A stretch of 42,325 bases of DNA from Nanobdellota archaeon (GTDB taxonomy: Archaea; Nanobdellota; Nanobdellia; CSSed11-243R1): NCBI GenBank assembly GCA_021163365.1, contig JAGGWW010000042.1:1-42325 (forward strand). Direction: 5' to 3'. The translations under genes and the position numbers were made by a program. Numbering within the stretch: position 1 is the first letter of the stretch; each line of letters begins with the position of its first letter. Positions 10,145 to 29,849 of this stretch are shown piece after piece. The notes beneath the pieces were generated by a model. That model had not been told where the DNA came from. It saw nothing but the letters and a program-made list of their open reading frames with translations, and searched no databases.

Positions 10145-10356
10145 GCATGAGAACGCGGGTTCCTACATGAGAACTACGCTTCCATACCTCCCTTTTCCGT
10201 AAAGGCTTTCTTCAAACCTTTCTTAAAAAGAAAGCTTTACCAAAGAAGCCTTTTCCGTAAACGCTTTTCTTTAGAAAAGGGTTTGAAGAAAGATTTACCA
10301 AAGAAATCTTTTGTGTAAAGGCTTTTTCTAAAAGTTTGAAGAATATGGGTTCTGAT
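10145..10356. repeat. Dispersed modular hairpin element, copy 1
   Basis: 10249-10292 is identical over 44 bp to 12462-12505; contains ATGAGAAC/GGTTC units and a 13-bp perfect inverted repeat (10206-10218 / 10280-10292). Confidence 0.9.
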
Positions 10357-10377
10357 AAAAAATAAAAAAAGAAGGAT

Positions 10378-10749
10378 TTATCTTCCAAAGTGGTATATTG
10401 CTTTTAGTGCAACTACTATTGCTGCTGGTGCAACAAACGCTTGGATGTATTGTAATATTGCTACTAATGTATTACCAATAAATGGAATTAATCCCCAGAA
10501 TCCTGATGCTAACAGCAACACTAATGACGCTACTAAAAATGGTACTTCTTCTTTTAATGTTACATTAATTAATCCAACAATTAAACCAAGCACTGCTAAT
10601 ACCCAAAATATTGTTTGGTTAAGTGTTCTTGTAAGCAACCCTGCAATTATTGCTATAAATATACCAACTAAAAATATCCAGTAACCAACGTTCTTTCCGA
10701 GGTCCAATGTACTCTTCCTTGCTGACTTTCTTCTCCTTTTTGCAGCCAT
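10378..10749 (-). CDS. Small integral membrane protein (about 4 TM) with a basic N-terminus
   Basis: Hydrophobic segments; strong GGAGGTGG SD. Confidence 0.8.
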   Translation of the reverse strand: MAAKRRRKSARKSTLDLGKNVGYWIFLVGIFIAIIAGLLTRTLNQTIFWVLAVLGLIVGLINVTLKEEVPFLVASLVLLLASGFWGLIPFIGNTLVAILQYIQAFVAPAAIVVALKAIYHFGR

Positions 10750-10828
10750 CTCATCCCACCTCCTATGTGCTATTTAAAAATTCACAATATTTAAAAGCTT
10801 CTATAAAGAAGTCACTATAGTGAAGTAG

Positions 10829-11302
10829 TCACCTTGATAAAACAAGTTTTAAAACACCATTTTTAAATATCTTTTTAAATAAATTATATTCTTCTTCAAG
10901 AGGTATTACTTTAAAGTACATCTTCTTTCCAGCGTATGCTCTTATTTCTATTGACTCACTAAATTTTCTTATTATTATGTCATTAACAGAAGAAACATCT
11001 GGAAGTTCGATGCTTATTTCTAATTTTCCTAAAAATCTTTTTATATTTGTCTTAGGCTCAACAACTTTTTCAACTTCTCTTATTGGAACATGTTTCTTGA
11101 TTTGGATTTGTTTTTGGGGCTCGCTTGTTTTAAATGTTATTCTTATATTGGGAAAAAGCTCATCAAATATCTCTTTTATTTCTTCTTCAACGTCTTTTCC
11201 AAACAAGTTAAAGCTAAATTTAAACAAAGTTTTCTTTTCGCCACAATAAGGGCAGTAGTTCCATTCTTTTTTTAGCTCTCTTCCGCATCTTTTACATTTC
11301 AT
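10829..11302 (-). CDS. Zinc-ribbon plus Hsp20/alpha-crystallin-like domain protein
   Basis: CKRC...WNYCPYCG N-terminus; C-terminal EP...IELPDV...FKNGVLKL. Confidence 0.75.
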   Translation of the reverse strand: MKCKRCGRELKKEWNYCPYCGEKKTLFKFSFNLFGKDVEEEIKEIFDELFPNIRITFKTSEPQKQIQIKKHVPIREVEKVVEPKTNIKRFLGKLEISIELPDVSSVNDIIIRKFSESIEIRAYAGKKMYFKVIPLEEEYNLFKKIFKNGVLKLVLSR

Positions 11303-11582
11303 TTACTTTCAACTCCCCCATTTTTCCAACACTTACTTGTATTTCACCATTCCATTCTCTAACATAACCATTTATTACTTCTACTATGTCACCGACTTTA
11401 ACCTTTTCTATTTGTTTTCCCCAAAGTGTTAGTTTTAGCTCACCACTATCATCAAAAACTGTGGCATTTGTAACTTTTTGTTTTCCATATCTTGTTTTAA
11501 CCTCTCTTATTGGTGCGATATCCTTAACTTTTGCTTTAAAATTTACACTTGTCATTCCAGGATGGATTTCAGATATTTTCAT
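11292..11582 (-). CDS. ssb: Single-OB-fold single-stranded DNA-binding protein
   Basis: MKISEI.PGM..VN..AKV, DDSGELKLTLWG, NGYVREWNGEIQVSVGKMG. Confidence 0.9.
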   Translation of the reverse strand: MKISEIHPGMTSVNFKAKVKDIAPIREVKTRYGKQKVTNATVFDDSGELKLTLWGKQIEKVKVGDIVEVINGYVREWNGEIQVSVGKMGELKVNEM

Positions 11583-12211
11583 ATTTTCACCTTTACGATT
11601 TTTACAGGAACTTTCATAACAGAAGTTTTTAATCCATCAATGCCGTCTGCCTCTGCTTGAATACCAAGAGTAATTGAAAGCTCTTTGTTTTTGTTTAGCT
11701 CATATATGTCTTGAATTCCAAAGATATCTGGTTTTATAATAAACTTAAAAACTCCAACCTTTCCAGCTTCAACTATCTGGGATTTAATAACCTTTGTGTA
11801 GCCAAATGATTTTGCAGGGTCGTATATGATTGCTGTGTACTTTCTTCCTATTTGTTCAACACCAACCCTTATTTTAAGCATGGCTTCTGTTCTGTTAGCA
11901 ACCCTGACTTTTAAAACAGCTTTTCCATTTTTTGTTAAAATTATCTCTCTTGGTTCAATTTCAACATCAAGCAATTCCTTTAACCTTTCTTTTATTTTCA
12001 TTAAGATATTGCTTGCTTTTGTTGGATGTGTGTGTTTTTTAAGAACAAGAGCAAGTTTTTTTAGAAAATCATTTGGCTTTGCATCTTGGTTTATTAAGTC
12101 AGTTATAACAAGCTTTGCGTCCTTTTCCCTTAAATTCTTTTTAAGAACATCCATAACAATTTCATATATCTTATACGTAGCAAAAAACTCTGGAAAACTC
12201 TTAACTCTCAT
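11579..12211 (-). CDS. Hypothetical protein (helical N-terminus, beta-sandwich-like C-terminus)
   Basis: 210-aa ORF that overlaps the ssb start by 4 bp and leads a three-gene run. Confidence 0.7.
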   Translation of the reverse strand: MRVKSFPEFFATYKIYEIVMDVLKKNLREKDAKLVITDLINQDAKPNDFLKKLALVLKKHTHPTKASNILMKIKERLKELLDVEIEPREIILTKNGKAVLKVRVANRTEAMLKIRVGVEQIGRKYTAIIYDPAKSFGYTKVIKSQIVEAGKVGVFKFIIKPDIFGIQDIYELNKNKELSITLGIQAEADGIDGLKTSVMKVPVKIVKVKI

Positions 12212-12248
12212 TTTATCACCAAATTATCCAATATCTTTTTATTTAAAT

Positions 12249-12515
12249 AACCTTTCTCTTAGGAAGAGAAAGCTTAACCAAAGAGAAATGAGAACCACCA
12301 GCGGGTTCTCATCCGTTCCTGCAACCCATAGGAACCCAGGTTCCTATTACCTCCTGCATAGGAACCTCCGGCGGGTTCCTATTACCTCCAGGAACCATAG
12401 GAACCTCCAGCATGAGAACCACCAGCGGGTTCCTATATCAGAACCTACGCTTCCATACCTCCCTTTTCCGTAAACGCTTTTCTTTAGAAAAGGGTTTGAA
12501 GAAAGCTTTAAAGAG
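12249..12515. repeat. Dispersed modular hairpin element, copy 2 (longest)
   Basis: Tandem ATGAGAACC..GGTTCTCAT and ATAGGAACC..GGTTCCTAT hairpins plus AT-rich modules; 12288-12326 is identical to 29654-29692. Confidence 0.92.
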
Positions 12516-12544
12516 TTTGAAATTATCTGAGAAGTTAGATAAAA

Positions 12545-13660
12545 ATGGCTGAATTCAAAGTAACGCCATGGGAAGTTGAAGGAAAAATAGATTATGATAA
12601 GCTTGTTAAGCAATTTGGGGTGTCTTTGATAGATGAAAGTATCTTAAAGAAATTTAAGAAAATAACAGGAGAAGTCCATTTCATGCTTAGAAGGAAAATC
12701 TTTTTTGCCCACAGAGACTTAGATTTTATCTTAAATGAGTATGAAAAAGGGAACAAATTTTATCTTTACACTGGAAGGGGTCCTTCTGAAAATCTTCACT
12801 TAGGTCATTTGCTTCCACTAACATTCACAAAGTATCTTCAAGAGAAATTTAAAGTTAAATGTTACATTCAGTTGACTGATGATGAGAAGTTTTTGTTTAA
12901 AAGAAATCTAACAATTGAGCAAGCAAATAAGATTGCTTATGAAAATGCATTAGATATAATTGCGCTTGGGTTCAATAAAAAACTCACAAAGATAATTGTT
13001 GATACAGACTATGCAAAAACACTTTACAAACAAGCAATAAGGGTTGCAAAACACATAACTTTTTCAACTGCTAAGGCTGTTTTTGGATTTGAAAATTCTT
13101 CAAACATAGGACAAATATTTTACACAAGCATGCAGGCAGTTCCTGCTTTTCTTGAATCTGTTTTTCAAGGGAAAAATGTTCCTTGCCTAATTCCACATGG
13201 AATAGACCAAGACCCACATTTTAGGATTGCAAGAGATGTTTTGCCAAAACTTGGATATTTAAAACCAGCGTCGATTCAAAGCAAACTCTTGCCTGGTTTG
13301 TTGGAAGGAGGAAAAATGTCAGCATCTATTCCGAATTCAGCAATTTTTACAACAGATACACCTAAAGAAATTGAAAAGAAGATAAAAAATGCTTTTTCAG
13401 GAGGAAGAGAAACAATTGAGGCTCATAGAAAATATGGTGGAAATCCTGATATTGACATACCTTTTCAATATTTAAAGTACTTTTTTGAGCCAGACGATAA
13501 AAAATTAAAGAAAATCGAAGAAGACTATCGCTCTGGGAAGCTCTTAACTGGTGAATTAAAGCAGATAGTTATTGAAAAAATAACAAAGTTCATATTAGAA
13601 CATCAAGAAAAAAGAGAGAAAGCAAAAGATGTAATTGAGGAATTTATTTTAAGAGATTAA
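12545..13660 (+). CDS. trpS: Tryptophanyl-tRNA synthetase (archaeal/eukaryotic type)
   Basis: VTPWEVEG, YTGRGPS..LHLGH, IDQDPHFR, KMSAS motifs. Confidence 0.97.
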   Translation: MAEFKVTPWEVEGKIDYDKLVKQFGVSLIDESILKKFKKITGEVHFMLRRKIFFAHRDLDFILNEYEKGNKFYLYTGRGPSENLHLGHLLPLTFTKYLQEKFKVKCYIQLTDDEKFLFKRNLTIEQANKIAYENALDIIALGFNKKLTKIIVDTDYAKTLYKQAIRVAKHITFSTAKAVFGFENSSNIGQIFYTSMQAVPAFLESVFQGKNVPCLIPHGIDQDPHFRIARDVLPKLGYLKPASIQSKLLPGLLEGGKMSASIPNSAIFTTDTPKEIEKKIKNAFSGGRETIEAHRKYGGNPDIDIPFQYLKYFFEPDDKKLKKIEEDYRSGKLLTGELKQIVIEKITKFILEHQEKREKAKDVIEEFILRD

Positions 13661-14190
13661 GGTCTTGTCCATCTAACTTCATAGTATGTTACATCTCCTT
13701 CATCATCCACTATTCCAATTAAAAGCTTTTTTCTAACAGAATGCGCGACTCTCATCATTGCTGCAAACTTCCTCCAATCAAAAATTTCTGTTTCATGCAC
13801 TGCAAATAAAACCCATTTTGCATGCTCCTGTCCTGGTGTTGTTCCTCTTTCATAAACTCTAAAATCAGCACCATATTTTAAAGCTGTTTTTGTTATATAT
13901 CCTCTTTTCCTTATATCAGCATAAACAGTATATCTTGTATAAAACCTTGGGTCAACTTTTGTTGCTTCTTTTATAAACCTTTTTAAATCCATAAGTCTGC
14001 CTTTCTGGCTTTTAATAACAATTGTTCCTTTTTGCATTAAGAATAATGCTTCTACTAAAGCAAGTTCTAATTTATCTCTAACTATTTGTCCATACCATCC
14101 TTTGTTAAAAATTCTATTTGATGCTTCTTTATCTAATATAATAACCTTGTCTCCTGTTAAAATTGCTTCAGCTGGTGGTTCTTTAGCCAT
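13657..14190 (-). CDS. endA: tRNA-splicing endonuclease, catalytic alpha-type subunit
   Basis: VYADIRKRGY..KTALKYGADFRVYERG..PGQEHAKW...RVAHSVRKK with the Tyr-His-Lys triad. Confidence 0.95.
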   Translation of the reverse strand: MAKEPPAEAILTGDKVIILDKEASNRIFNKGWYGQIVRDKLELALVEALFLMQKGTIVIKSQKGRLMDLKRFIKEATKVDPRFYTRYTVYADIRKRGYITKTALKYGADFRVYERGTTPGQEHAKWVLFAVHETEIFDWRKFAAMMRVAHSVRKKLLIGIVDDEGDVTYYEVRWTRP

Positions 14191-14213
14191 AAGATAAAAT
14201 TAAAAGAATGGGA

Positions 14214-16073
14214 TTAATAAGTATTGCGATATCTTGTTAAATCTTGTGGATGCTTTCTTGTATATTCTAAAACCTTTTCTCTCCAAACTATTTGTGAAAA
14301 ATGCTTGTATCCAAAGTAAATTAAAACTGCTATGCCAATTATTGCCAATGCAATTAGTCCAGGCACATAAACATCCTTTACTTCTGTTATAAACATTCCT
14401 GTAATACCGAATTCATTTTCCTCTTCTTTATAAGTAAGTGTTATCTCTTTTGTAAATACATCCTCACCATTTACACTAATAACAACAAAAGCTGTATAAT
14501 TAGTTTCATTTGTTGGGATTAAATTAAAGGTAATCTCTTTTGTTTCATCAACATCAAGTGTGATTGTTTCATTTTCCATAGTATAGTTTAATCCAGCTTC
14601 TGGAACAATCTCTATTGTGTATGTCTTTTGTTCAGCTCCAATGTTTGTTATATTAAACTTAAATTCAATTGGTTCTAAATTTGAAAAATTTACTTCTGGT
14701 TGAATGTCCCATGATATTACTACTTGTTCTTCTTCTGGCTTTAAAACGTTAAAGTTTAAGGTTTTTGTAACACATTTGTTTTCTGTGTTACAAACAGTTA
14801 CATTTAATTGATATCCCCCAACTCTTGTTTCATTTGGCACCGTAAGTATCAATGGTATTTCGATAGATTTTGATGCATTAAGGGAAACAAGAGTGCTGTT
14901 TATCTTAATATGTTCCCAACCACTAGTTGAAATCTTATAAACATCATCCATGTTTCCAATGTTATATATTTTAATCTTGTATTCTTTTGATTCTCCTGCG
15001 TTTATCTCATCGTTGTATTTATTAATACTAAACAAGAAGTTCTTTTCTCTTTGAGATATAATAAAGCTCTTTTTAAGCTCATAGTATGTTAATTCATTGT
15101 ATGCCTTAAATGTAACCTCTATGTTGCTTTTGTCTGGTATTTCCAAAAGGAATTTTTCTTCTTTTGTTTCTCCTGGTTGAACACAACTTGTGTGTCCTTT
15201 TTTAAACACATTGTTGTCATAAACATACTCAAATTGATATTGAACTAAAGAAGTTCCTTTGTTTTTTATTAAAGCAGTACCTTCAACTATTTCTCCTGGA
15301 AAAATTGTGCTTTTTTCAAGTGAAACATCAACTATTTCTATATCTTCTTTGTGATACGTTTTATCTTCTTTTAATCCACTAACTGATAAATAACTTGGAT
15401 TACTAATTAATCCATCTGAGTATGCTTGAGCAGCAATTAAGAAATTAGATTCTCCAAATTCATCAACCGGAAGTTCAACTTCTTTTGTTTTAACATCATT
15501 TGCTGGAACTTCTATTTTTACAGTTTCTGGGTTTTCAAAATTCTTTTCTCCTTTTAAATATATTTTAACTTCATGGTTTTGTGTATCTTTGTTTTCAATT
15601 CTTATCCCTATTTTTAAAATGTTGTTGTTAATTGAGTAATCCAATAAGTTAAGTTGAAGTTCTTTATCCCCCATGTCTTCAACTTTTACAACCTTAAACT
15701 CTTTTGCTAAGTCACCTATTTTAACTCTAACAACATATTCTCCTTCATCTGATATATCAATTGTTTTGTAAAAGTATCCATCAAAAACATAATCATCAGA
15801 AGGGCCAATGTATGTTGGAGAGTATGTGGCAACAAGATTTCCTTCATCATCTAACACTTGGATTTTTAATTCTGATGTTTTAAGAGCTTGTGTGTCATCG
15901 TTAATATAAATATATCCAAAAACCAAGAATTCTTCATCTTCATTTAAAACTAACTCATCATTGTCTGGATTAAATGGAAATATATCCATCTTAATATCAT
16001 AAACAGACGCATTTGCTATGCTTAAAGCAAGGATAAAAGCAAGTATTCCGAGTAAAAATTTACTACTCTTCAA
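14214..16073 (-). CDS. Surface protein with tandem Ig-like (CARDB/NEW3-like) domains and a C-terminal TM anchor; S-layer-like
   Basis: Signal peptide (TTG start, GGGTGGTG SD), repeated I.N.G beta-sandwich motifs, many NxS/T sequons, GITGMF before the TM helix. Confidence 0.75.
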   Translation of the reverse strand: MKSSKFLLGILAFILALSIANASVYDIKMDIFPFNPDNDELVLNEDEEFLVFGYIYINDDTQALKTSELKIQVLDDEGNLVATYSPTYIGPSDDYVFDGYFYKTIDISDEGEYVVRVKIGDLAKEFKVVKVEDMGDKELQLNLLDYSINNNILKIGIRIENKDTQNHEVKIYLKGEKNFENPETVKIEVPANDVKTKEVELPVDEFGESNFLIAAQAYSDGLISNPSYLSVSGLKEDKTYHKEDIEIVDVSLEKSTIFPGEIVEGTALIKNKGTSLVQYQFEYVYDNNVFKKGHTSCVQPGETKEEKFLLEIPDKSNIEVTFKAYNELTYYELKKSFIISQREKNFLFSINKYNDEINAGESKEYKIKIYNIGNMDDVYKISTSGWEHIKINSTLVSLNASKSIEIPLILTVPNETRVGGYQLNVTVCNTENKCVTKTLNFNVLKPEEEQVVISWDIQPEVNFSNLEPIEFKFNITNIGAEQKTYTIEIVPEAGLNYTMENETITLDVDETKEITFNLIPTNETNYTAFVVISVNGEDVFTKEITLTYKEEENEFGITGMFITEVKDVYVPGLIALAIIGIAVLIYFGYKHFSQIVWREKVLEYTRKHPQDLTRYRNTY

Positions 16074-16100
16074 TTACACCACCCCTATAGAATTAGAAAA

Positions 16101-16940
16101 CTACTGTGTATTTATAAACCTTTCTATTTTTGAATTTACCTTGTCTATAAAAACAGAGATTGGTTTAGTAAACCTGCTTTTTGAAAAAACATATGCTAAG
16201 AAACCAAGCAAAAGCCCACCAATTATGTCAATGCCCCAATGTATGCCTAAAAATAGGATTGCAAAAGCTGTTAAAATTAATATTTTTAATGTGAGTATAA
16301 AAGACCTTTTGTGCCTCATTTCAAATGAAAGCAAAAGCAAAGAAAATGGCACACTTATATGTCCACTTGGAAAACAATCATCTAATCTATCAACAAGCAT
16401 TACTAAGCTTAGATAAACAGGATTGCTGTATAGTAAGGGTTTAACAGGTGTGTTTTCTGGATACAAAGATGTTACTTTTACATTAAAGAACAAATAAGAA
16501 GGCACTAAGATAGCATAGCTGAATGCAAGTATGTATGTATATCTTCTTAAAAGCTGTTTTTCACCTGTTAAAATGAAATATAATGGGAATGCAACTAAGA
16601 GACCCATAAAGAAAAGCAAGTAAAAAATTGAAATAAAATTTGTAAATATGCTTGAATGTATGAGTGATTGAAGAAACACTATGTGCTTGTTTCCTTCTAA
16701 GTTATAGAAAACAGGTGTGAAATCAATTCCAAAAGAAGAAATGTCTTGTAATTTGTTTTCTAATTTTATAAATAATAAGATTAATAAAAGGACAATTAGA
16801 TTTCCTGGAGCTTCGCTTAAACCTTTTTTTAATGATTCATAATTTATTCTTTTATCATGGTCCAATATCTTTACACTTACGATTAGAAAAATCACTAGTG
16901 CAGGGATATACCAACTCAATCCTAAAACAACTGGATTCAT
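16101..16940 (-). CDS. PAP2-superfamily membrane phosphoesterase/phosphotransferase
   Basis: CFPSGHIS and LGIHWGIDIIGG motifs; multiple TM helices. Confidence 0.85.
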   Translation of the reverse strand: MNPVVLGLSWYIPALVIFLIVSVKILDHDKRINYESLKKGLSEAPGNLIVLLLILLFIKLENKLQDISSFGIDFTPVFYNLEGNKHIVFLQSLIHSSIFTNFISIFYLLFFMGLLVAFPLYFILTGEKQLLRRYTYILAFSYAILVPSYLFFNVKVTSLYPENTPVKPLLYSNPVYLSLVMLVDRLDDCFPSGHISVPFSLLLLSFEMRHKRSFILTLKILILTAFAILFLGIHWGIDIIGGLLLGFLAYVFSKSRFTKPISVFIDKVNSKIERFINTQ

Positions 16941-17008
16941 GTTTCAAGAAAGTTAAAATCCATTTAAAAATTTTTAGAAATAGAAATATTTAAAACTTGG
17001 TGTCACTT

Positions 17009-18754
17009 ATGAGTAGTTGGGGTGATTTTTTGGATATAAATGCATTGTTTAGCAGAGAGACAAGATTGGAAACATTGGTTGATGGCTGGTATTTGGATAA
17101 AGAAAATAAAGTAATTTATGATTTTAAATGTGGAAGATATCCTTATTCTAAGATTGAAAAATTAGCAAAAGGGTGTAGAGTTATCAATGATGATTGGGCT
17201 GGTTTTATTTTTCCAAATACACCTGGAGTTTTTAAAATAAAAGAAGAAAAAGAGGGTTATGCAATTGTTGAAAATAACGGTTTGCATGTAATTAATTTGG
17301 AAACAATGGTTGTTAGTAGTAGTAGCGTCGATGAAATAATACTTAACTTCAAAGAGCATGATGAAATACAATGTAAAGATGGAATTGTTGCTTTTGTTGG
17401 AGTAGAAAATAATAAAGAGAGAGTTATACTTTTAAAAAATGAAGAAGCAAAAAGCAGAGAATATAATCATATTCCTTTTTTGTGTTTACACAAAGGTATT
17501 GCTTATTTCACAATTAGAGATGAGGAGCGTAGTAGAATTGCATTATTTGATGGAAAAGAAGAAATAATGGGCGTGTCATATAAATACGCTATTCCAGAAG
17601 TTGAAGGAAATAAAGTATTATTCCATATACCGTATGCAAGAAGAGTTTTGCTTTCTAAAGATAAATTAGGTGCAAAGTTAAGCTATTTTAATCATAAGAA
17701 TGAGCTTAAGGGTGTAGGATATTTAATTAAAGAAGGAGATAAAGAAAAAATTTTGCTTGAAAAAGATGGTAAGTTGTTTGAAAGCAAATTACACAATAGA
17801 ATAGTTGAACTAGTTGTAGAAAATGGAACAGCTGGTTTTATTGATAAAAATGAGAATGGGGAGATGGCAATAATATTTGATGGAAGTGAAGAGTTGAAAA
17901 CCAAGCAGTATTTTAAAATTCTTGACTTTGAATTTGAAGATGGTGTTGCATACTTTAGGGCTGTAAGGTTTGACAATGTTAACTATTTTGTTGTTATATT
18001 TGATGGAGATAATGAAATAAAGAGCAAAGAACGTGCTTTTATTAAAGATATTATTTGTGAAAATGGTTTTATAACATTTGCAGCTGAAGACAAAGATGGT
18101 TATAGGGCTGTTGTATTCAATAAAGAAAAAGAAATAGAAAGCGGTGTTCATAAAGATATTGGCAGAGTTAGATACAAAGATGGATATCTTGCTTTTTCAG
18201 CTAAGGATGAAGATAAATGGAGAATAATCTTATTTGATTTGAAAAAAGAAATGGAAGGAGACAGATTGTATGATAAAATTTCTTCTTTGATTGTTGATAA
18301 CGGAGCTGTTGCTTTTGGAGGGCTAGAAGGATATAAGAAAAGGATTATTATATTTAATGGAAAAAGAGAAATGGAAAGCAGTTTATATCCTAAGTGTTAT
18401 CTTGTTGATTTTGAAAATGGCATTGCTTATTTTGTAACTGGAGAAGAAGATAAATGGCGTATGTATTTATTTGATGGGGAAATAGAAATAGGAAGCAAGA
18501 GGTTGTATAATAGAATTGGAAAGATAAAAAGCAAGCATGGTATTGCTTTTGTAGGAACAGAAGGGGATAAGAAAAGGATTGTTGTATTAAATAAAAAAGA
18601 AGAAGTAGAAACTGAGCTGTTTGATGATGTAGATATCTTGGAATTTAAGAATGGTGTTGTTAGATTTAAATATAAAAAAGATGATGTTTGGAAAGAAGGT
18701 TCTATATCAACAAATAGATTTAATCCTTTTAAAAATCTAAGAAAAGTCTTCTAA
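17009..18754 (+). CDS. Beta-strand repeat protein with about 40-aa repeats (track start 16997; ATG 17009 with GGTG SD is more likely)
   Basis: About 10 imperfect repeats of the form (N/D)G..xF.....K.RIILFDG..E..S..Y..I; no signal peptide. Confidence 0.75.
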   Translation: MSSWGDFLDINALFSRETRLETLVDGWYLDKENKVIYDFKCGRYPYSKIEKLAKGCRVINDDWAGFIFPNTPGVFKIKEEKEGYAIVENNGLHVINLETMVVSSSSVDEIILNFKEHDEIQCKDGIVAFVGVENNKERVILLKNEEAKSREYNHIPFLCLHKGIAYFTIRDEERSRIALFDGKEEIMGVSYKYAIPEVEGNKVLFHIPYARRVLLSKDKLGAKLSYFNHKNELKGVGYLIKEGDKEKILLEKDGKLFESKLHNRIVELVVENGTAGFIDKNENGEMAIIFDGSEELKTKQYFKILDFEFEDGVAYFRAVRFDNVNYFVVIFDGDNEIKSKERAFIKDIICENGFITFAAEDKDGYRAVVFNKEKEIESGVHKDIGRVRYKDGYLAFSAKDEDKWRIILFDLKKEMEGDRLYDKISSLIVDNGAVAFGGLEGYKKRIIIFNGKREMESSLYPKCYLVDFENGIAYFVTGEEDKWRMYLFDGEIEIGSKRLYNRIGKIKSKHGIAFVGTEGDKKRIVVLNKKEEVETELFDDVDILEFKNGVVRFKYKKDDVWKEGSISTNRFNPFKNLRKVF

Positions 18755-18762
18755 AAGTTTAG

Positions 18763-18910
18763 TGGGGCGGCAGGGATTTGAAATCCGGCAACCTTCTTTG
18801 AAGGCTGTCCCCGATCAACAGGTCTCTTCAGACCTCTTGCATATCATCCCCAAAGGGTCATCGCTCCATCTTCTGGAGCCTGCCGTTCTGCCTGGTTAAA
18901 CTACCGCCCC
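18763..18910 (-). tRNA. tRNA-Trp(CCA) with two introns: 18824-18872 (49 nt, 37/38) and 18783-18808 (26 nt, 53/54)
   Basis: Acceptor GGGGCGG/CCGCCCC-A, anticodon arm GCAGG-CTCCAG|A-CCTGT, T arm CGGGG|TTCAAAT-CCCTG after removing both introns; both junctions fold as BHB motifs; no encoded CCA end. Confidence 0.93.
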
Positions 18911-18945
18911 ACAGAAAAAACAAAAAAGAAAGTATTAATAAATGT

Positions 18946-19638
18946 TTACATGTAGTCCCTGTAGATTTCTGCAAAAATCCTTGCTGAAAATAAAAGAGAA
19001 TAAAACATAAAGCCAAAGCCAATGAAATACCCAATTAATGGTATTGTTAACAAAGCAAATGAGACAAAAAATAAAACTAAGGATATTACATACGCTTTTA
19101 AGTATGGGATAAGTGCTCTTTTAATCCTTGGCAACATCTCATTTGGAGAGATTGCAAAATGAATGTTTTCACTTGCAGCATACAAAATAATTGAAATTGG
19201 AAGTAAAAATAATGAAATTAATAAAAAGATAAAGCTAATTATACTTAAAGACAAACCAAGGGCATTAAACTTTGGTGTTGTTCCTTCAGCTAATGCTTCT
19301 AAAGGATTGCCAAGTATTGTTGTGCTTGCTGCAGATATAACAATTGGTGGAAGAAGAAAAATAGCAAGTATCGCAAATACACTAATGCCATGCTTAAAAA
19401 ATCTTTTCCAGTTATGGAAAGTAAACCAATGGGGCAATAGGTTGCTTTGCTTTATTGTTTCCCTAATAACTTCAACCATGTAGCCAAATACAAAAATCAC
19501 TGGGATTATTAAGAACCATAAATAATTTAGAATTACCCCAATAAAAAAACTCTTTAAATCAAGAAAAGGGTATTTTGTAGATTCAACATAATCAACCATA
19601 GGTAAATTTATGACAGAAACAAATAAATAATTTTCCAC
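18946..19638 (-). CDS. DUF4013-like multi-pass membrane protein (start uncertain)
   Basis: KYPF..., IIPVIFVFGYMVEVIR, LPHW...W..FFKHG pattern; 4-5 TM helices. Confidence 0.75.
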   Translation of the reverse strand: MENYLFVSVINLPMVDYVESTKYPFLDLKSFFIGVILNYLWFLIIPVIFVFGYMVEVIRETIKQSNLLPHWFTFHNWKRFFKHGISVFAILAIFLLPPIVISAASTTILGNPLEALAEGTTPKFNALGLSLSIISFIFLLISLFLLPISIILYAASENIHFAISPNEMLPRIKRALIPYLKAYVISLVLFFVSFALLTIPLIGYFIGFGFMFYSLLFSARIFAEIYRDYM

Positions 19639-19672
19639 AAAAGATTAAAACAAAAGAGTTCTTTAAAATTAC

Positions 19673-23496: not shown

Positions 23497-23620
23497 TGGC
23501 CCCGAGGGGACTTCCCCAACCCTTTCTTTCCACAGGCTTTCTTTTTAAGAAAGGGCTGATTCGAACCCCCGACCTACTGCTTAGAAGGCAGTCGCTCTAT
23601 CCAAGCTGAGCTACGGGGCC
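23497..23620 (-). tRNA. tRNA-Arg(UCU) with a 49-nt intron in the T loop (23511-23559, 59/60)
   Basis: Acceptor GGCCCCG/CGGGGCC-A, D arm GCTC/GAGC, anticodon arm ACTGC-CTTCTAA-GCAGT, T arm GGGGG-TTCGAA|T-CCCCT; the intron ends form a 12-bp stem. Confidence 0.93.
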
Positions 23621-23682
23621 AAGATAACATTATAAATTATGTATTTATAAAGTTTTTAAACATGCTTCTCTTTTAAATTTTC

Positions 23683-26517
23683 ATGGTTAATTTTCAAGAA
23701 ATAGAAAAAAAGTGGCAAGATGCTTGGGAAAGGGAAAAGATTTTTGAAGCAAACCCAAATGAAAAGAGAAAATTCTTTGTTACTGTGCCATATCCATACA
23801 CAAGTGGGCCATTTCACATAGGGCATGGAAGGACGTATACAATTGCAGATATATTTGTTAGGTACCATAGGATGAAAGGTGAAAATGTTCTTTGGCCAAT
23901 GGCGTTTCATGTAACTGGAACACCTGTTTTGGCTATTTCAAGAAGAATAGAAAGTGAGGAAAAGGAGTTTATTAAATTGTTTGAGAGCTATGTTAAGCTT
24001 CATGAAAAAGATGAAACAAAAGTGAAGGAGATTGTTAAAAGCTTTGTTAAACCAGAGAATGTTATGCAATATTTTGCATCTACTTTTATAAAAGATTTTA
24101 AATCACTTGGTTGTTCAATTGACTGGAGAAGGAAATTTACAACAAACGACCCAGAATATAATAAATTCATAGAATGGCAATTTCAAAAGCTAAATGAGCT
24201 TGGATTTATTAAAAAAGGAGAGTATCCTGTTTTGTATTGTCCAAATTGTAAAAATGCTGTTGGAGAGGATGATATAAAAAGCGGAGACCAAATAAAAGCA
24301 GAAGTTGGTGAGTGGCTACTTTGGAAATTTCCATTTGAAGACAAATTTGTTGTTTGTGCAACTTTGCGTCCAGAAACAATTTTTGGGGTTACAAATTTAT
24401 GGATAAATCCAGATGGCGCATATGTTGAAGCAAAAGTTAATGGAGAAATTTGGATAATTAGCAAAGAGGCTGCTGAAAAACTTTTATTTCAAGGAAGGAA
24501 GGTTGAAATCTTAAGAGAATTTCTTGGAAAAGAATTGATAGATAAAAAGGTTAAGAGCCCAATTGAAGATAGGGAACTACCAATTTTAGAAGGAAAATTC
24601 GTTGATACAAAAAGTGGAAGTGGTGTTGTTTTCTCTGTACCAGCTCATGCACCATATGATTGGATTGCTTTACAAGACTTGAAAAAAATTGGTAAAGCTA
24701 AAGATGTTGAGCCGATTTCAATTATTAATATAAAAGGATATTCAGAATTTCCTGCAAAAGATGCTTGTGAAAAATTAAATGTTAAAACTCAAGAAGAAAA
24801 AGAAAAACTTGAGAAAGCAACTGAAGAGATTTACAAAGCAGAATTTTACTATGGTGTTCTAAATGAAAAATGTGGGGAGTTTGCTGGAAAAAGAATTTCT
24901 GAAGTAAAAGAAGATGTTATTAAGGTGTTTAGAAAGCAAGGAAAACTTGATGTTATGTATGATGTTTTTGCAAAAGAAAAACCAGTTTATTGCAGATGTG
25001 GAGGAGAAATCGTTGTTTCAATATTAAAGGATCAGTGGTTTATAGATTATGGTAATGAAGAATGGAAAAAACTTGCAAGAGAATGCTTGAAAAAAATGGA
25101 GGTTATTCCAGAGATTTATAGAAAGTTATTTGAAGACACAATTGAATGGTTACATGAAAGACCTGCTGCAAGAAAAAGAGGGCTTGGAACAAAACTTCCT
25201 TTTGATAAAGAATGGATAATTGAAAGCCTTTCTGATTCAACTATTTATATGGCATTTTACACAGTAATTCACCATATAAGGAAAAACAAAATACAATATG
25301 AAAAACTGACACCAGAATTTTGGGATTATGTGTTCCTTGATAAGGGAGATGTAAAAGAGTTAAGCAAGAAATTAGAAATTGATGAAGATGTTTTAAAAAA
25401 TATGCATGATGAGTTTAATTACTGGTACCCTCTTGATTTAAGACACACAGCAATAGCACATATTACAAATCATTTAACCTTCTTTATATTTAATCATGCT
25501 GCAATATTTCCAAAAAAACATTGGCCAAAGAGGATAACATTAAATGAGTTACTAATTCGAGAAGGGAGAAAGATGTCAAAAAGTTTGGGGAATGTTATCC
25601 CATTAGCAATTGTTCCAGAAAAATATGGAACTGATTTGTTTAGGATGTATATGGCTTATGGCGCTGATTTATCATCTGTTTTTGATTGGAGAGAAACAGA
25701 TGTATCCTCATTAAAAGGAAAGCTTTTGCAGTTCTTTAATATCATCGTAAGTGAAAAAGAAAGCGAATATCTTGAAGATAATGCAACAAAATGGCTTTTA
25801 TCAAGATTTAACAAAAACTTAAAGGAAGCAACAAATGCTCTTGAAAAATATTCTCCAAGACAATATGTGCAAAATGCATTTTTTAACATAATAAATGATA
25901 TAACATACTTTAAAAGAAGGACAAAAAATCGTGGGGTGTTAAAAGAAAAAATATTTCCTAAATGGGTTAAGCTTCTTTCACCTGTAATCCCACATATATG
26001 TGAAGAACTTTGGCAAATACTTGGTAACAAAAGTTTTGTTTCATTAGAAAAATGGCCAGAGTTTAATGAAAATGAAATAAACGAAGAAGCAGAAGCTGGA
26101 GAAGAGCTTGTAAAAAATTTAATTTCTGATATAAATGAAGTCATTAAGCTTGTTGGGAAAGAACCAAAGAAGATTAAGTTGTTTGTTGCTGAAAGTTGGA
26201 AGTACTTACTTTATAAAATTGTAAAAGAAAACGATAAAGAGTTTAAAACTTTGATGAAAAAAGCAATGGAAGAAGATGAGATTAAAAAACATGGCAAAGA
26301 AGCAAGCTCGCTTCTTCAAAAGATATTAAAAGATAGAAGGAAGATTCCTGAATTTTTAATTTCAAAAGAAAAAGAATTTGAGATATTAAAAGACGCAAAA
26401 GAATTTTTAGAAAGCGAGTTTGCATGTAAATTTGAGATTAGTCATAGTGAAGAAAGCAAAGAGCAAAAAGCTAAAAACGCTTTGCCAAATAAACCAGCAA
26501 TTTTGGTGGAAACATGA
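23683..26517 (+). CDS. leuS: Leucyl-tRNA synthetase (archaeal type)
   Basis: PYPYTSGPFHIGH, ATLRPET, SVPAHAPYD, ESLSDSTIY, KMSKS motifs. Confidence 0.97.
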   Translation: MVNFQEIEKKWQDAWEREKIFEANPNEKRKFFVTVPYPYTSGPFHIGHGRTYTIADIFVRYHRMKGENVLWPMAFHVTGTPVLAISRRIESEEKEFIKLFESYVKLHEKDETKVKEIVKSFVKPENVMQYFASTFIKDFKSLGCSIDWRRKFTTNDPEYNKFIEWQFQKLNELGFIKKGEYPVLYCPNCKNAVGEDDIKSGDQIKAEVGEWLLWKFPFEDKFVVCATLRPETIFGVTNLWINPDGAYVEAKVNGEIWIISKEAAEKLLFQGRKVEILREFLGKELIDKKVKSPIEDRELPILEGKFVDTKSGSGVVFSVPAHAPYDWIALQDLKKIGKAKDVEPISIINIKGYSEFPAKDACEKLNVKTQEEKEKLEKATEEIYKAEFYYGVLNEKCGEFAGKRISEVKEDVIKVFRKQGKLDVMYDVFAKEKPVYCRCGGEIVVSILKDQWFIDYGNEEWKKLARECLKKMEVIPEIYRKLFEDTIEWLHERPAARKRGLGTKLPFDKEWIIESLSDSTIYMAFYTVIHHIRKNKIQYEKLTPEFWDYVFLDKGDVKELSKKLEIDEDVLKNMHDEFNYWYPLDLRHTAIAHITNHLTFFIFNHAAIFPKKHWPKRITLNELLIREGRKMSKSLGNVIPLAIVPEKYGTDLFRMYMAYGADLSSVFDWRETDVSSLKGKLLQFFNIIVSEKESEYLEDNATKWLLSRFNKNLKEATNALEKYSPRQYVQNAFFNIINDITYFKRRTKNRGVLKEKIFPKWVKLLSPVIPHICEELWQILGNKSFVSLEKWPEFNENEINEEAEAGEELVKNLISDINEVIKLVGKEPKKIKLFVAESWKYLLYKIVKENDKEFKTLMKKAMEEDEIKKHGKEASSLLQKILKDRRKIPEFLISKEKEFEILKDAKEFLESEFACKFEISHSEESKEQKAKNALPNKPAILVET

Positions 26518-27014
26518 TTTTAACAAGGAATGAAATTTTAAAACTTGTAAAGAGTGGTGAGTTAAAGATAAAGCCATTTAATGAGAAAAATGTTGGAGCT
26601 GGTTCGATTGATTTATCGCTTGATAATAAATTTAGGATTTTTAAAGGAAACCAAAAGGTTAAGATAAGTGAAAAAGTAGATTACAAAAAATTTACAAAGT
26701 TAATTAAGGCGGAAAAAATTGTGTTAAAACCTGGTGAAATTGTTTTAGGTATAACAAGAGAAAAAATAAAATTACCAACAAATATATGTGGGTGGTTGCA
26801 AGGAAGGAGCAGGTTTGCAAGACTTGGGCTTGTTGTTCATGTTACTGCAAGTTTTGTTCAACCCGGCTCTGAAAACAAACAAGTTTTAGAAATAATAAAT
26901 CTAAGTCCAAATGAAATTGAAATCCATGCTGGAGACAAAATCTGTCAATTAATTCTTGAAAAAACAATTGGTAGGGCTAAGTTTAAAGGCAAGTTTGTTA
27001 ATCAGAAGCTTTAA
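26514..27014 (+). CDS. dcd: dCTP deaminase
   Basis: SIDLSL, GRSRFARLGL.VH.TA.FV.PG, LEI.N, GDKICQL motifs. Confidence 0.9.
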   Translation: MILTRNEILKLVKSGELKIKPFNEKNVGAGSIDLSLDNKFRIFKGNQKVKISEKVDYKKFTKLIKAEKIVLKPGEIVLGITREKIKLPTNICGWLQGRSRFARLGLVVHVTASFVQPGSENKQVLEIINLSPNEIEIHAGDKICQLILEKTIGRAKFKGKFVNQKL

Positions 27015-29619
27015 GTTTAAATCCTCTTGCTCTTTTTGGGTCTCCATCAACTTTTTCACAAAGTTTCTCTATTTCTTTTTTAACATCTATATCTGGCGTT
27101 GTTGATTCTCCATAAGCAAAGTTTTCTCCAATTAGGATTAAAGCTTTATTTTCAAGTTTAAATGATTGCCCAATTTTTGCTAATATACCAAAATCATCAA
27201 TTGGAAGCTTAACAACAGTTAATTTTTCATTTCTCTTTAATGCTTCTTCAACAATTCTTTTTGAAACTTCTTCTTTTAATTTTTTTAGCTCATTTCTTTG
27301 ATTTTTCCACTCTTCAAAAAACCTCTTTGCTGTTTTTGGTAAATCTTCAATTGAGACATTCCAAAGTGTTGTTAATTCTTTAAGGATTTTTTCCTCTTTT
27401 TGTATTCTTTCAATTGCTTTGTCTCCAACTGCCATTTCTATGCGCACCACACCATCTTTAATTCTCTCAGTAGATAATAATTTTATTATCTTTATTTCTT
27501 TTGTGTTTTTTACATGGGTTCCGCCACATGCTTGTACATCTTTACCAATTTTAACTATTCTTATTTCTCTGCCAGGAACAGCACCACCTTGGTAAATTTG
27601 CATCCCATATCTTCTTTCAGCAACCTCTCTTGGTAAAACCATTATCTCAACTTTTATTGCTTTTTTAATCATTTTGTTAGCTATTCTTTCTATCTCTTGA
27701 AATTCTTCAAATGACAAAGGTTTGTAATGAGTGATATCAAGTTTTCCCTTCTCTATTGTTTTTTCGCTACCTGCTTGATTAACATGCTCTCCCAAAACCT
27801 TTCTTGCAGCATAGCCAACAAGGTGAACTGCTGAATGTGTTATTGTTAGCTGCATTCTTCTTTCTTTATCTACTCTACACTCAACTATTTGATTTAAATC
27901 AAATTTGTGTGCTTTTTGAAGTTCGTGAAGAACGACACCATCTTTAATTAAAACAGATTTTAATTTTATACCATTTATATCTCCAAGGTCATAGTCCTGT
28001 CCGCCAGAACGTGGATAGAAATATGTTTTATCAAGAATTACAAAGTTGTCTATCTGTGCAATTACTTTTGCCTTAAATTCAAATTTATCTTGGTCTTCTC
28101 TAAACCCTAAGATTGTTTTTGGAATGCCTGAGACATCTATTGATATCTCTTCTTTCTTTTTCTTTGACTTTTTCTTAAGCTCATCTAATGCATTGTAAAA
28201 GTTAGAAGGCAATTTTATATCTGGTGCTATTTGTTTTATAAGCTCTGGTGTTATGCCATTTGATTCATAAAGTTTTAACATTGTATTAACATCTAATTTG
28301 TTGGTTTTAACAATTTTCTTAATTATTTTTTGTGCTTTTTGAAGTGTTTTGTTGTATCTTTCTCTTTCTATACTTAATAAATCTGGTAATATCTTTGGAT
28401 ATTTTAAATCCTTGTACCATTTTCCAAATTCTTTTAGATGAAGTTTAAAGATGTTTTCTAAATCAATATTCCAATTATATTTGTCAATAAAAGAAAAGCA
28501 CCTTCTAAGAATGTTTCTTAAGTTGTAACCACCACCAACATTGCTTGGAAGTTCGCCATCATTAATTGCAACAAGTAATGTTCTAGTATGGTCTGCAATT
28601 GAATACAATGCTGAAATAGGCAATATTTCTTTTTTTAATTCTTCAGATGAAAAGCCTGTTTTTTTAGAAACAATTTCCCATGCTTTTTCTACATCTTGAG
28701 TTTCATCAACATTTAAAATAGATGCCCATTGAGCAAATTTTTCCCAAATTTCTTTGTTTGGTTTTGTTCCTGTTTTTTTATATAGGTATTTCAAAACCTT
28801 TGGAAAAACAGCATCGTAAGATGTTGGCATGCCACTTGATAACCAAGCCCATCTTTCTGCTCCAGAACCCATGTCTATAATCTTTGTTTTTAGTTCTCTA
28901 TATCCACTTTCTGTTTGCTCATATTGCATGTAAACTTGATTTCCAAGTTCTAAGCCATATGCAAAGAACTCAATTGAAGGACCAAAGTTTCCGCCACCAA
29001 CCCACACATCTTCGTGTAATACAAGTTTTTCTTTTGGAACCTTTAATGCTTTTATAAAAAAGTTTGTAAATTGCTCTACTCCTTCATTTTTAAAGTAAAG
29101 AAATTTGTTTGGGGTGTTAAAAACATGATGTCCTATCATGATAAAACCTGTGTAATGGCTTCCTGTGATTCCAACGTTTTCAATGTCATTAAATCTTAAA
29201 CAAAATTGGTCTTCTAATGTTGCTTGATGTGGTGGTGGAACTTCTCCTGAAACAACATAAGGTTGGAATATATTTATACCAGCAGCCACAAAGTAAAGCT
29301 TATCATACCACCTTGCAACAACAGGATATCTTTTTATTGGTTTGTATCCAAATCTTTTCATAAACTTAACATGCAAGTCATAACCCTCTTTGTATCCAAA
29401 TTTCTTTATTGGTTTCTTGCCAATAAAAGTGTAGCCATTGTCGCAAGAAGCATCATTGCAAACATCTCTTGGTGTTGTTGACCAAAAACCCCTTCCACAT
29501 TTTTTGCAAACATATCTTTTAAAGCCAAGTTTTTCAAGTGTTTCTGTTGGATAGTATTTTCTATAATTTTTAAAAAATTCTTGCTTCATCTTCTTTTTTA
29601 ACTCTTTATCACTAAGCAT
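26998..29619 (-). CDS. alaS: Alanyl-tRNA synthetase (archaeal type)
   Basis: N-terminal CKKC..FWS..C...C, RYPVVARW, GLELGNQVYMQY, IADHTRTL, editing HSAVH and CGGTH motifs. Confidence 0.97.
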   Translation of the reverse strand: MLSDKELKKKMKQEFFKNYRKYYPTETLEKLGFKRYVCKKCGRGFWSTTPRDVCNDASCDNGYTFIGKKPIKKFGYKEGYDLHVKFMKRFGYKPIKRYPVVARWYDKLYFVAAGINIFQPYVVSGEVPPPHQATLEDQFCLRFNDIENVGITGSHYTGFIMIGHHVFNTPNKFLYFKNEGVEQFTNFFIKALKVPKEKLVLHEDVWVGGGNFGPSIEFFAYGLELGNQVYMQYEQTESGYRELKTKIIDMGSGAERWAWLSSGMPTSYDAVFPKVLKYLYKKTGTKPNKEIWEKFAQWASILNVDETQDVEKAWEIVSKKTGFSSEELKKEILPISALYSIADHTRTLLVAINDGELPSNVGGGYNLRNILRRCFSFIDKYNWNIDLENIFKLHLKEFGKWYKDLKYPKILPDLLSIERERYNKTLQKAQKIIKKIVKTNKLDVNTMLKLYESNGITPELIKQIAPDIKLPSNFYNALDELKKKSKKKKEEISIDVSGIPKTILGFREDQDKFEFKAKVIAQIDNFVILDKTYFYPRSGGQDYDLGDINGIKLKSVLIKDGVVLHELQKAHKFDLNQIVECRVDKERRMQLTITHSAVHLVGYAARKVLGEHVNQAGSEKTIEKGKLDITHYKPLSFEEFQEIERIANKMIKKAIKVEIMVLPREVAERRYGMQIYQGGAVPGREIRIVKIGKDVQACGGTHVKNTKEIKIIKLLSTERIKDGVVRIEMAVGDKAIERIQKEEKILKELTTLWNVSIEDLPKTAKRFFEEWKNQRNELKKLKEEVSKRIVEEALKRNEKLTVVKLPIDDFGILAKIGQSFKLENKALILIGENFAYGESTTPDIDVKKEIEKLCEKVDGDPKRARGFKLKASD

Positions 29620-29653
29620 GTTTTATGTAAAAAAAGATAGATTAAAATACTTT

Positions 29654-29807
29654 ATGAGAACCACCAGCGGGTTCTCATCCGTTCCTGCAACCATAGGAAC
29701 CTCCAGCATGAGAACCACCAGCGGGTTCTCATATCAGAACCTACGGTTCCGATACCTCCCTTTTCCGTAAAGGCTTTGTTACGAAAAGGGTTTGAAGAAA
29801 GCGAACC
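29654..29807. repeat. Dispersed modular hairpin element, copy 3, flanked by 24-bp direct repeats
   Basis: Colinear with copy 2 apart from a missing 70-bp block; AAAAAAGATAGATTAAAATACTTT occurs at 29630-29653 and 29808-29831. Confidence 0.92.
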
Positions 29808-29849
29808 AAAAAAGATAGATTAAAATACTTTGCTTAGCTTTCATTTTTT

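Follow-up and report, generated by a model that had tools for sequence, protein, structure and literature searches.

Introner elements of algae and fungi are repeated elements carrying or completing splice signals, and their multiplication gives rise to many near-identical introns. Short, non-autonomous, palindromic repeats of extragenic DNA include REP/REPIN sequences with RAYT and MITEs, which occur in clusters and inverted pairs and often lie between genes. For archaea, tRNA intron transposition in Thermoproteales was reportedly described by Sugahara in 2008 and by Fujishima in 2010. The available part of a preprint on archaeal intron gain places 12.5% of Thermoproteales introns in families at least 90% identical that span tRNA types, and states that “how they arrive remains open” (bioRxiv 10.64898/2026.10.13.758758). 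In Caldiarchaeum, the accessible portion of one report describes a tRNA-Thr disrupted by a 1.8-kb recombinase-bearing element (PMC3293823), and the PIT/BoxC/TMECO repeats of bacteria (37 nt in E. coli) are described, in the text available, as multi-copy, conserved and able to form an intrastrand triplex, with no transposon link, with unknown function and with an association with local sequence variability (PMC4666352). Here we analyse a 42,325-nt stretch of DNA (the window) from a Nanobdellota archaeon, in which short hairpin modules occur both as tRNA introns and as intergenic arrays. The window is the whole of contig C35 (GenBank JAGGWW010000042.1) of an assembly (GCA_021163365.1, here G000) with 752,584 bases in 44 contigs, ~32% G+C and 91% completeness. 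On balance we favour a reading in which a DNA-level repeat becomes an intron wherever a bulge-helix-bulge (BHB) arises, after which the fitted cassettes are copied, in an introner-like manner.

Hairpin modules shared by tRNA introns and intergenic DNA

An earlier reading of the window from its letters alone (the sequence-only reading) had proposed that tRNA introns and dispersed intergenic repeats belong to one element family, beginning from a 19-nt identity between a tRNA-Arg intron and intergenic positions 10217-10235. The identity is exact: the 19-mer CCTTTCTTAAAAAGAAAGC is found at 10217-10235(+) and 23536-23554(-), with no third site at two or fewer mismatches, and none of 100 dinucleotide shuffles reached two matches. 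Similarity around it extends to 36 nt at 81%. Across G000, two kinds of module were recognised. In module A (35–48 nt) the pyrimidine tract S1, CC(C)TTTYCTT, is followed by a loop, its Watson-Crick complement (S2), a short linker and a second purine tract (S3); the linker is often the palindrome CGTNNACG, and aligned linker types are CGTKNACGG, CTNNACC and CCTKGGG. Module G is a perfect hairpin of 21–25 nt, ATNNGAACC-loop-GGTTCNNAT.

Three nhmmer rounds and an architecture scan, with a filter applied afterwards, gave 57 copies of module A in G000, of which 33 lie in tRNA introns, five in the 16S and 23S rRNA genes and 19 elsewhere. Orientation is sense in all 33 tRNA copies and in four of the five rRNA copies. 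Module G, collected with a hairpin regular expression, has 18 matches outside tRNA genes and 13 within them (31 in all); one of the latter, in tRNA-Thr(UGU), was discarded as spurious and the others fall in eight introns. When 4-nt flanks were included, the G hairpin had 27 matches against 0–3 in 20 Markov controls. An unbiased 13-mer repeat map proved too noisy in this AT-rich genome and was dropped, and no Rfam 15 family reached gathering score for the arrays or the module in the window and 18 loci of other archaea. Several contig ends lie in or beside arrays or intron-rich tRNA genes (C2:1-152, C11:5009-5182, C18:20740-20990, C24:14043-14160 and C36:11826-11988); the assembly therefore probably breaks at these repeats, which makes the copy numbers underestimates.

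Matches outside tRNA and rRNA genes were found by blastn-short (E<=1e-3) for 17 of the 44 tRNA genes, and in 20 dinucleotide-shuffle rounds of the same test no gene had one in 19 rounds and one gene did in the remaining round. The T-loop intron of tRNA-Ser(UGA) on contig C8 matches 29707-29762 of the window over 57 nt at 98%, that of a tRNA-Ser and a tRNA-Leu matches C11:5104-5137 (34/34), the D-loop intron of tRNA-Asn matches C39:4888-4927 (41 nt, 95%), and the D-loop intron of tRNA-Pro(UGG) matches 12264-12288 of the window (25/25). AT-rich, low-complexity palindromes could in principle resemble one another by chance, and the tracts are indeed of low complexity: the bare module-A architecture has a background of 25–45 matches per shuffled genome against 104 in G000. 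Set against this are the shuffle results of zero or one, the 57 nt at 98%, matches of 63/63 between introns (below) and reversed-pattern controls with no match at all. The shuffle controls refute chance likeness, to which we give practically no credence. The proposal of a single family is thus supported by nhmmer, the architecture scan, the regular expression and the shuffle controls alike, with matches far above the shuffled background that the sequence-only reading had named as the yardstick.

Intron positions and sharing between tRNA genes

The tRNA catalogue was built with ARAGORN, Rfam and our own cloverleaf parser and then curated to 44 genes, with a mean length of 139 nt. Six are intronless and 38 are interrupted, by 59 introns in a hand count that is possibly off by a few: 17 in the D-loop, two at 30/31, 20 at 37/38, four at 53/54 and 16 at 59/60. 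Module A is present in 12 of the introns at 59/60, two at 53/54, 13 in the D-loop and six at 37/38, and with eight more that carry module G, 41 of the 59 introns are module-built. The T-arm introns singled out by the sequence-only reading are repeat sites, but the modules are not confined there, occurring in introns at D-loop, 37/38, 53/54 and 59/60 positions and in rRNA; a lack of modules in other tRNA introns, which that reading would have counted against itself, is not what the genome holds. By the criteria used, 18 of the 59 introns are without a module, about seven of these looking related by eye and the others unrelated. Standard tools missed most tRNA genes of G000, which matters for annotation. 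Two calls that rest on our own parse, C3:42733-42886(+) as a tRNA with anticodon TAT (Ile) and C30:8785-8981(+) as a tRNA-Leu with anticodon AAG, have anticodons unusual for archaea.

Sharing of sequence between tRNA genes is extensive. Twenty-six pairs of tRNA genes for different amino acids, involving 22 of the 44 genes, have at least 30 nt in common at >=90% identity, some of them across intron positions. tRNA-Ser(CGA) is identical over 63/63 nt to tRNA-Leu(UAG) and likewise to the tRNA-Leu at C30:8785, the D-loop intron of tRNA-Gly(GCC) matches the 37/38 intron of tRNA-Pro(CGG) at 39/39, and the D-loop intron of tRNA-Pro(GGG) matches the T-loop intron of tRNA-Thr(GGU) over 35 nt at 97%. 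Because segments are shared across intron positions, exon homology cannot explain the sharing, and to judge by the identities the copying of introns between genes and positions is recent. Bare cores without arms are common to different intron positions, and in the identical tRNA-Ser and tRNA-Leu introns the identity stops a few nucleotides at most from the splice sites, the T stems of the two genes being different.

Modules might also have colonised existing introns and spacers as REP-like filler, creating no introns themselves. The 18 module-free introns show that introns exist without modules, and the T-loop introns of tRNA-Ser(UGA) and tRNA-Ser(GGA), 104 and 100 nt long with three hairpins each, look like short cassettes that have grown. 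However, the T-loop introns of 46–53 nt are module, arms and tail only: once the module, the 3-nt arms and the 6-nt tail are subtracted, nothing remains. The module stem is moreover the inner helix of the BHB, and module-type introns in tRNA-Arg(UCU) go from none to one to three across three genera (both below), which makes filler a very unlikely account.

The rRNA genes exceed their models in length, the 16S gene (C3:45708-47356) with 1649 nt against 1478 positions and the 23S gene (C3:51339-54483) with 3145 nt against 2987. The 16S and 23S genes carry module-A mini-introns, of which one interrupts GGATTAGATACCC and another CCGTGAGG. In the 23S gene two module-A copies stand head to head at 53953-54022 and another is at 54094-54129; the 16S leader holds one more, at 45548-45577. 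Cutting two of the 16S insertions at hand-derived BHB sites restores, by eye, the universal motifs GGATTAGATACCCGGG and CCGTGAGGCGTCC. Mini-introns inside 16S and 23S primer-target motifs would disturb primer-based surveys.

Splice-site geometry and splicing enzymes

Removing the insertions restores a canonical cloverleaf in 30+ tRNA genes, both tRNA genes of the window included. A strict BHB motif was found for eight T-loop introns, the second tRNA-Trp intron and several introns at 37/38 or 30/31. In the eight strict T-loop motifs the outer helix is the T stem, nucleotides T54-R57 and the intron tail together make up a central helix of 4 bp between bulges AA^C and AG^T, and the inner helix is the module stem, 3–12 bp long (6–12 bp in seven of the eight). 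TTCA loops stand opposite a TGAR tail with four of four pairs in 7/7 cases; TTCG loops stand opposite CGAG or CGGA in four of nine, and the other five have three of four pairs. The intron tail thus covaries with R57. The T-loop cut at 59/60 is the structural counterpart of that at 37/38, each lying in a 7-nt loop on a 5-bp stem, which gives a simple structural rule for why these two positions accept a hairpin.

The first of the window’s tRNA genes, tRNA-Arg(UCU), occupies 23497-23620(-) and is 124 nt long, with a cloverleaf score of 50.5 and an Rfam tRNA match of 34.9 bits over model positions 7-64. It has one intron, a 49-nt module-A intron at T-loop position 59/60 (23511-23559(-)) that carries the second copy of the 19-mer. 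Splice sites predicted from BHB geometry place the T stem in the outer helix, TTCG at T54-G57 opposite a GGGA tail (three of four pairs), bulges of AA^T and AG^T, and an inner helix of CAGCCCTTTCTT / AAGAAAGGGTTG; the minimum-free-energy fold has the T stem, a 6x6 internal loop and a 13-bp inner helix. The match to the module-A sequence profile is weak (E 0.28); the intron was assigned to the module-A family by its architecture and by BLAST. Contig ends at 23561 and 23581 lead to related tRNA genes without a 59/60 intron or with a 37/38 intron; orthology was not established, and they were left unused as evidence.

The tRNA-Trp(CCA) gene, located by the cloverleaf parse at 18763-18910(-), is 148 nt long and has two introns. 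The second, whose hairpin had been claimed beforehand, was located at 18783-18808(-); it is a 26-nt intron at position 53/54 with the short module-A-like hairpin CAGCCTTC-AAA-GAAGGTTG, contains CAGCCTTCAAAGAAGGTTG at 18789-18807(-), and has a strict BHB with outer helix TTGA/TCAA, central helix TCGG/CCGG, bulges GG^A and AT^T and an inner helix of 8 bp. Intron 1 (18824-18872(-), ~49 nt, position 37/38) contains neither module A nor module G. Its GATGA...CTGA strings look box C/D-like by eye, which we take to follow the known archaeal tRNA-Trp intron, and no Rfam match to it was found. ARAGORN detected neither of the two window genes and Rfam one (tRNA-Arg, only in part), tRNA-Trp being missed by both. 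Beside the tRNA-Trp gene, 16997-18754(+) is an open reading frame (ORF) of 585 amino acids made of 117–120-nt tandem repeats, with the repeats at 17544-18611; a contig of sequencing run X6 joins 16977 to 18761 and represents a strain without this whole gene, the junction adjoining the tRNA-Trp 3′ end.

The splicing endonuclease gene EndA, which the sequence-only reading had placed at 13657-14190, is confirmed there on the minus strand. It encodes 177 amino acids with Pfam domains tRNA_int_endo_N and tRNA_int_endo, and residues 9-177 align with residues 4-171 of the M. jannaschii structure 1a79 (E 2e-38) without an inserted loop. This is the only tRNA-splicing endonuclease gene found in the assembly, and by length and layout the predicted enzyme is alpha4-like. 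One RtcB gene is present (C8:21300-24068(-)), with two match pieces ~1.4 kb apart in one 982-aa frame; the internal gap looks like an intein.

Intergenic arrays in the window

All three intergenic arrays proposed by the sequence-only reading are real. Array 1 (10145-10345) occupies the spacer that is downstream of ORF 10378-10749(-) and immediately upstream of where a Lon-like gene (8300-10108(-)) starts. It contains degenerate G hairpins followed by module A at 10191-10214(-), 10219-10248(+) and 10249-10291(-), the plus-strand copy including the 19-mer, and is made of 58-nt tandem units. The fold of 10200-10300 has a z-score of -5.07, with none of 200 shuffles equally stable. Array 2 (12252-12515) separates the divergent starts of ORF 11579-12211(-) and a Trp/Tyr-tRNA synthetase gene (12545-13660(+)), with module A at 12252-12289(+) and 12462-12504(-) and G hairpins at 12288-12312, 12358-12382 and 12412-12436; its end directly abuts a TTTAAAGA box, and it was matched in eight of 40 relatives. 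Array 3 (29650-29810) lies between the divergent starts of the alanyl-tRNA synthetase (AlaRS) gene (26998-29619(-)) and ORF 29850-30251(+). Here G hairpins at 29654-29678, 29708-29732 and 29733-29753 are joined by module A at 29759-29800(-), the copy claimed at about 29761-29794, which fits the module-A profile with E 1.7e-10. The arrays adjoin housekeeping genes and their ends abut TATA-like boxes. They hold module copies in both orientations, and the intergenic copies are cores without the site-specific arms of introns. A T-arm-like helix, GCTTTC/GGAAGC, around intergenic copies was rejected, as it is not kept in other copies.

Several further observations concern the arrays and their neighbours. 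Aminoacyl-tRNA synthetase genes stand beside three arrays, two in the window (Trp/Tyr-tRNA synthetase at 12545-13660 and AlaRS at 26998-29619) and one elsewhere in G000 (prolyl-tRNA synthetase, C39:4926-6665); this adjacency could be chance, only about ten arrays having been recorded. ORF 29850-30251(+), beside array 3, encodes 133 amino acids with a match to Pfam Toxin_12 (cystine-knot ion-channel inhibitor; E 4e-9), an unexpected match in an archaeon; the product is probably no more than a small secreted protein rich in cysteine. At C33:44540-44780(-), between ftsZ and another gene, a module-A copy is preceded immediately upstream by a G+C-rich and apparently structured stretch of ~100 nt, which no Rfam family matched. 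Contig joints such as 12258/29653 were discounted, since the assembly seems to have linked one repeat to another there, and several parts of the window are without contig cover in some runs.

Filled and empty sites

The sequence-only reading had named uniform occupancy of orthologous sites as evidence against itself, and occupancy does differ, at four kinds of site. The tRNA-Arg(UCU) gene has no intron in relative G001, one in G000 and three in relative G002, the three belonging to three genera. Upstream of AlaRS, where G000 has array 3, the spacer of G001 is ~52 nt and module-free (the AlaRS query found an orthologue in one of five relatives). At C30:20868-21989(-), the reading frame of a MiaB-like radical-SAM gene runs through a G hairpin plus ACCTCC, which adds 7–8 residues, absent from nine of nine orthologues, at residues ~119-126 (TYSSDTS) in the linker before the CxxxCxxC motif. 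Finally, array 1 is ~116 nt shorter, by about two 58-nt units, in the strain represented by a run X6 contig in which 10174 is joined to 10308. The sequencing runs with matching contigs are hydrothermal-vent and sediment metagenomes. Relatives carry modules in both tRNA introns and spacers.

A rival reading has the modules spread as RNA. Excised circular BHB introns could re-enter RNAs by a reversal of the EndA/ligase reaction and become fixed via cDNA and recombination, the intergenic copies being by-products. The sense orientation of all 33 tRNA and four of the five rRNA copies is what such a route would give, the identical tRNA-Ser and tRNA-Leu introns end near their splice sites in genes with differing T stems, and EndA and RtcB are both encoded. 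However, a reverse transcriptase was not found in the 91%-complete assembly, the intergenic copies are without the arms expected of an excised intron, both orientations occur within arrays, one G hairpin forms an in-frame part of a protein gene, and armless cores are common to different intron positions. We regard spread through RNA as distinctly unlikely. Together, the in-frame insertion and the armless intergenic copies speak for a repeat at the DNA level as the source. Strict sense orientation in tRNA introns, the wide conservation of module A (below) and the failure to find a mobilising enzyme keep both an RNA route and a cellular function in play.

Module A in other archaea

To search beyond G000, one genome per species was scanned with GAAARGCGTKNACGGAAAR, which gave at least 119 stretches, roughly 119 being expected by chance in 596 Gb; 80 loci were examined. 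Among 82 matches in these loci 30 have the full module-A architecture, and 28 of the 30 are archaeal. Carriers among the matches listed include Woese-, Aenigm-, Micr-, Iain-, Parv- and Nanoarchaeota, ANME-1/Methanophagales, Syntrophoarchaeum, Thermoplasmata and Methanobacteriota. The 48-nt core is near-identical across these distant lineages, and four such genomes have seven, three, two and three copies, with none in reversed-pattern controls. Some copies elsewhere are D-loop, 53/54 or 37/38 introns, always in sense orientation. No literature report of the core sequence was found, and viral contigs yielded no exact match to module A or module G. A class-wide search for the pattern TTCRAAYSMRCCYTTTY gave ten matches in G000 and at most two in each of the other 400 genomes, many of the foreign ones being plain T arms; on this pattern, the T-loop cassette appears unusually frequent in G000.

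Outside G000, the position and make-up of module A may point to more than dispersal. Of 49 copies, 13 start no more than 12 nt from the stop codon of a sense ORF, 19 are at most 60 nt from a convergent ORF’s stop, and 25 show one or both, counts that are without a matched control. At three ANME-1-type loci (L053, L080 and L110), module A directly follows a common C-terminus, ...Y-H-stop, by eye, which suggests that it has been kept at an orthologous 3′ end in these genomes. S1, S2 and S3 vary together among copies. Similarity of S3 to S2 is greater in mirror than in direct order in 38 of 63 copies outside G000 and the reverse in one (24 ties), compared with 15 mirror and nine direct of 50 in G000, where the bias is weaker because a sub-family has a Watson-Crick-type S3. 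Module A accordingly has a three-tract intrastrand-triplex layout, the triplex itself being predicted. Its complementary strand has the order pyrimidine-pyrimidine-purine, the classical fold-back triplex design.

Module A might be primarily a functional structure (a transcript 3′ end or terminator, or a protein-binding or triplex-forming element) that introns merely reuse or tolerate. The near-identical core, which ANME-1/Methanophagales, Syntrophoarchaeum, Methanobacteriota and many small-genome (DPANN-type) lineages each have more than once, speaks for a function, as do the co-variation of the three tracts, the 38-to-1 mirror bias, the arrangement of “...YH stop” and element common to three genomes and, with the reservation on controls already made, the stop-codon proximity of 25 of 49 copies. 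A role at 3′ ends would leave unexplained why introns at four positions and rRNA genes carry sense copies, and likewise the near-identical intron and array copies, the differences in occupancy and the parallel behaviour of the unrelated module G. As the primary explanation we consider function unlikely; it is compatible with the introner-like reading, since a useful element can also be mobile. In a wider form of that reading, put forward tentatively, a triplex-type repeat found across archaeal phyla would be the source of BHB introns, a DNA-level mobile “archaeal introner” that would make a new tRNA or rRNA intron each time its stem came to lie next to loop nucleotides able to complete a BHB, and that would pass between small-genome episymbionts and their partner lineages (ANME-1, Thermoplasmata and methanogens). 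If this is true, exchange between episymbiont and partner would explain the near-identical 48-nt core in distant genomes.

From repeat to intron

In the introner-like reading, we infer both the movement of the modules at the DNA level and its direction, from repeat to intron. Units would be copied or inserted as DNA, perhaps by host replication and repair acting on the hairpins or by an enzyme supplied in trans. Copies would persist where they are harmless: in spacers by promoters and stop codons, at one in-frame protein-linker site and in stable-RNA genes. The last would accept them, as a BHB of whatever sequence is cut by the archaeal splicing endonuclease. The element’s own stem would supply the inner helix, and the central helix would be formed by four host loop nucleotides (T54-R57 for 59/60, nucleotides 32-35 for 37/38) with a 4-nt tail of the element, after which EndA (13657-14190) and RtcB would take the element out of the RNA. 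T54-R57 hardly varies, so that any tRNA would suit a T-loop cassette, and fitted cassettes and bare cores could then be copied between tRNA genes and positions.

A number of points weigh against this account. Module A is in sense orientation in every one of its 33 tRNA copies, a bias that random insertion of DNA does not predict and that requires selection on RNA folding, copying from intron to intron or an RNA-mediated route. The claim that the window holds no mobilising enzyme extends to the 91%-complete assembly as a whole, which breaks at repeats: Y1_Tnp, RVT_1, DDE_Tnp_1 and DDE_3 were not found, and TnpB zinc-ribbon matches were sub-threshold only. Two tyrosine recombinases are present in the assembly at positions unrelated to the repeats. 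Neither target-site duplications, at the filled versus empty tRNA-Arg and MiaB-like sites, nor clear terminal inverted repeats were seen. D-loop BHBs are mostly relaxed and most D-loop introns are without a resolved BHB, and under a loose BHB definition the rRNA operon and arrays gave 55 candidates against 33–56 in Markov controls, no more than background. Distant conservation and the position at the 3′ end of what looks like one gene in three ANME-1-type genomes suggest a conserved function and not a purely selfish element. The intron numbers and the rRNA splice sites are hand-curated, and excision from RNA is predicted from sequence. One of the two tyrosine recombinases, a Phage_integrase match at C30:23529-23978(-), has a single internal TAA and may be what is left of an integrated element.

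What G000 supplies for the question of intron gain is candidate donors outside RNA genes, near-identical copies, and filled and empty alleles among relatives, and the search has brought to light a conserved three-tract element across archaea.

Comparison with known systems

By the features that define archaeal BHB introns, the introns of G000 belong with them: removal restores the cloverleaf or rRNA, two 3-nt bulges flank a 4-bp helix in the strict cases, and EndA and RtcB genes are present, excision being predicted. We found no literature reports linking BHB introns to intergenic repeats.

The introns of Thermoproteales, in the available part of the preprint, are alike in that similar BHB introns occur across tRNA identities at non-canonical, BHB-limited positions. 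The mark of such families, introns >=70-90% identical across tRNA identities, is found in G000 in 22 of 44 genes by a similar though not identical metric. Unlike those introns, as far as the same text describes them, the G000 sequences also occur in arrays, at gene 3′ ends, in one coding sequence and in rRNA introns, and move between positions, and the G000 host has a small genome in which the only EndA is alpha4-like. In the Caldiarchaeum case, as set out in the accessible portion of the report, intron gain in a tRNA gene is likewise tied, in a natural population, to mobile DNA; there, however, the element is large, protein-coding and at a single locus, whereas G000 has non-coding repeats of 21–48 nt at dozens of loci (PMC3293823).

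Among short repeats, the nearest described elements to module A are PIT/BoxC/TMECO, which from the available text are also short, conserved, multi-copy and intergenic, with three tracts. They are bacterial, always intergenic and of other sequence, whereas module A is archaeal and forms the body of introns, its triplex being predicted; the order pyrimidine-purine-purine with a palindromic linker is, relative to that description, module A’s own feature. The palindromic extragenic clusters of G000 recall REP/REPIN elements, but a Y1_Tnp (RAYT) gene was not found in the 91%-complete assembly. Its hairpins are palindromes and not elements with terminal inverted repeats, and for MITEs neither DDE, Y1 or supra-threshold TnpB genes nor target-site duplications were seen. 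The G000 copies differ from both groups in being introns of RNA genes as well. Introners are spliceosomal introns of eukaryote protein genes, and those of G000 would be removed from tRNA and rRNA by the endonuclease at BHB motifs.

The disrupted tRNAs of DPANN and Asgard archaea are the closest in setting, with many non-canonical introns, alpha4-type EndA in DPANN and tRNA genes missed by standard finders, according to the available parts of the studies (PMC5829648; bioRxiv 10.64898/2026.10.13.758758). The same parts of these studies report no donor sequences, whereas G000 shows candidate donors.

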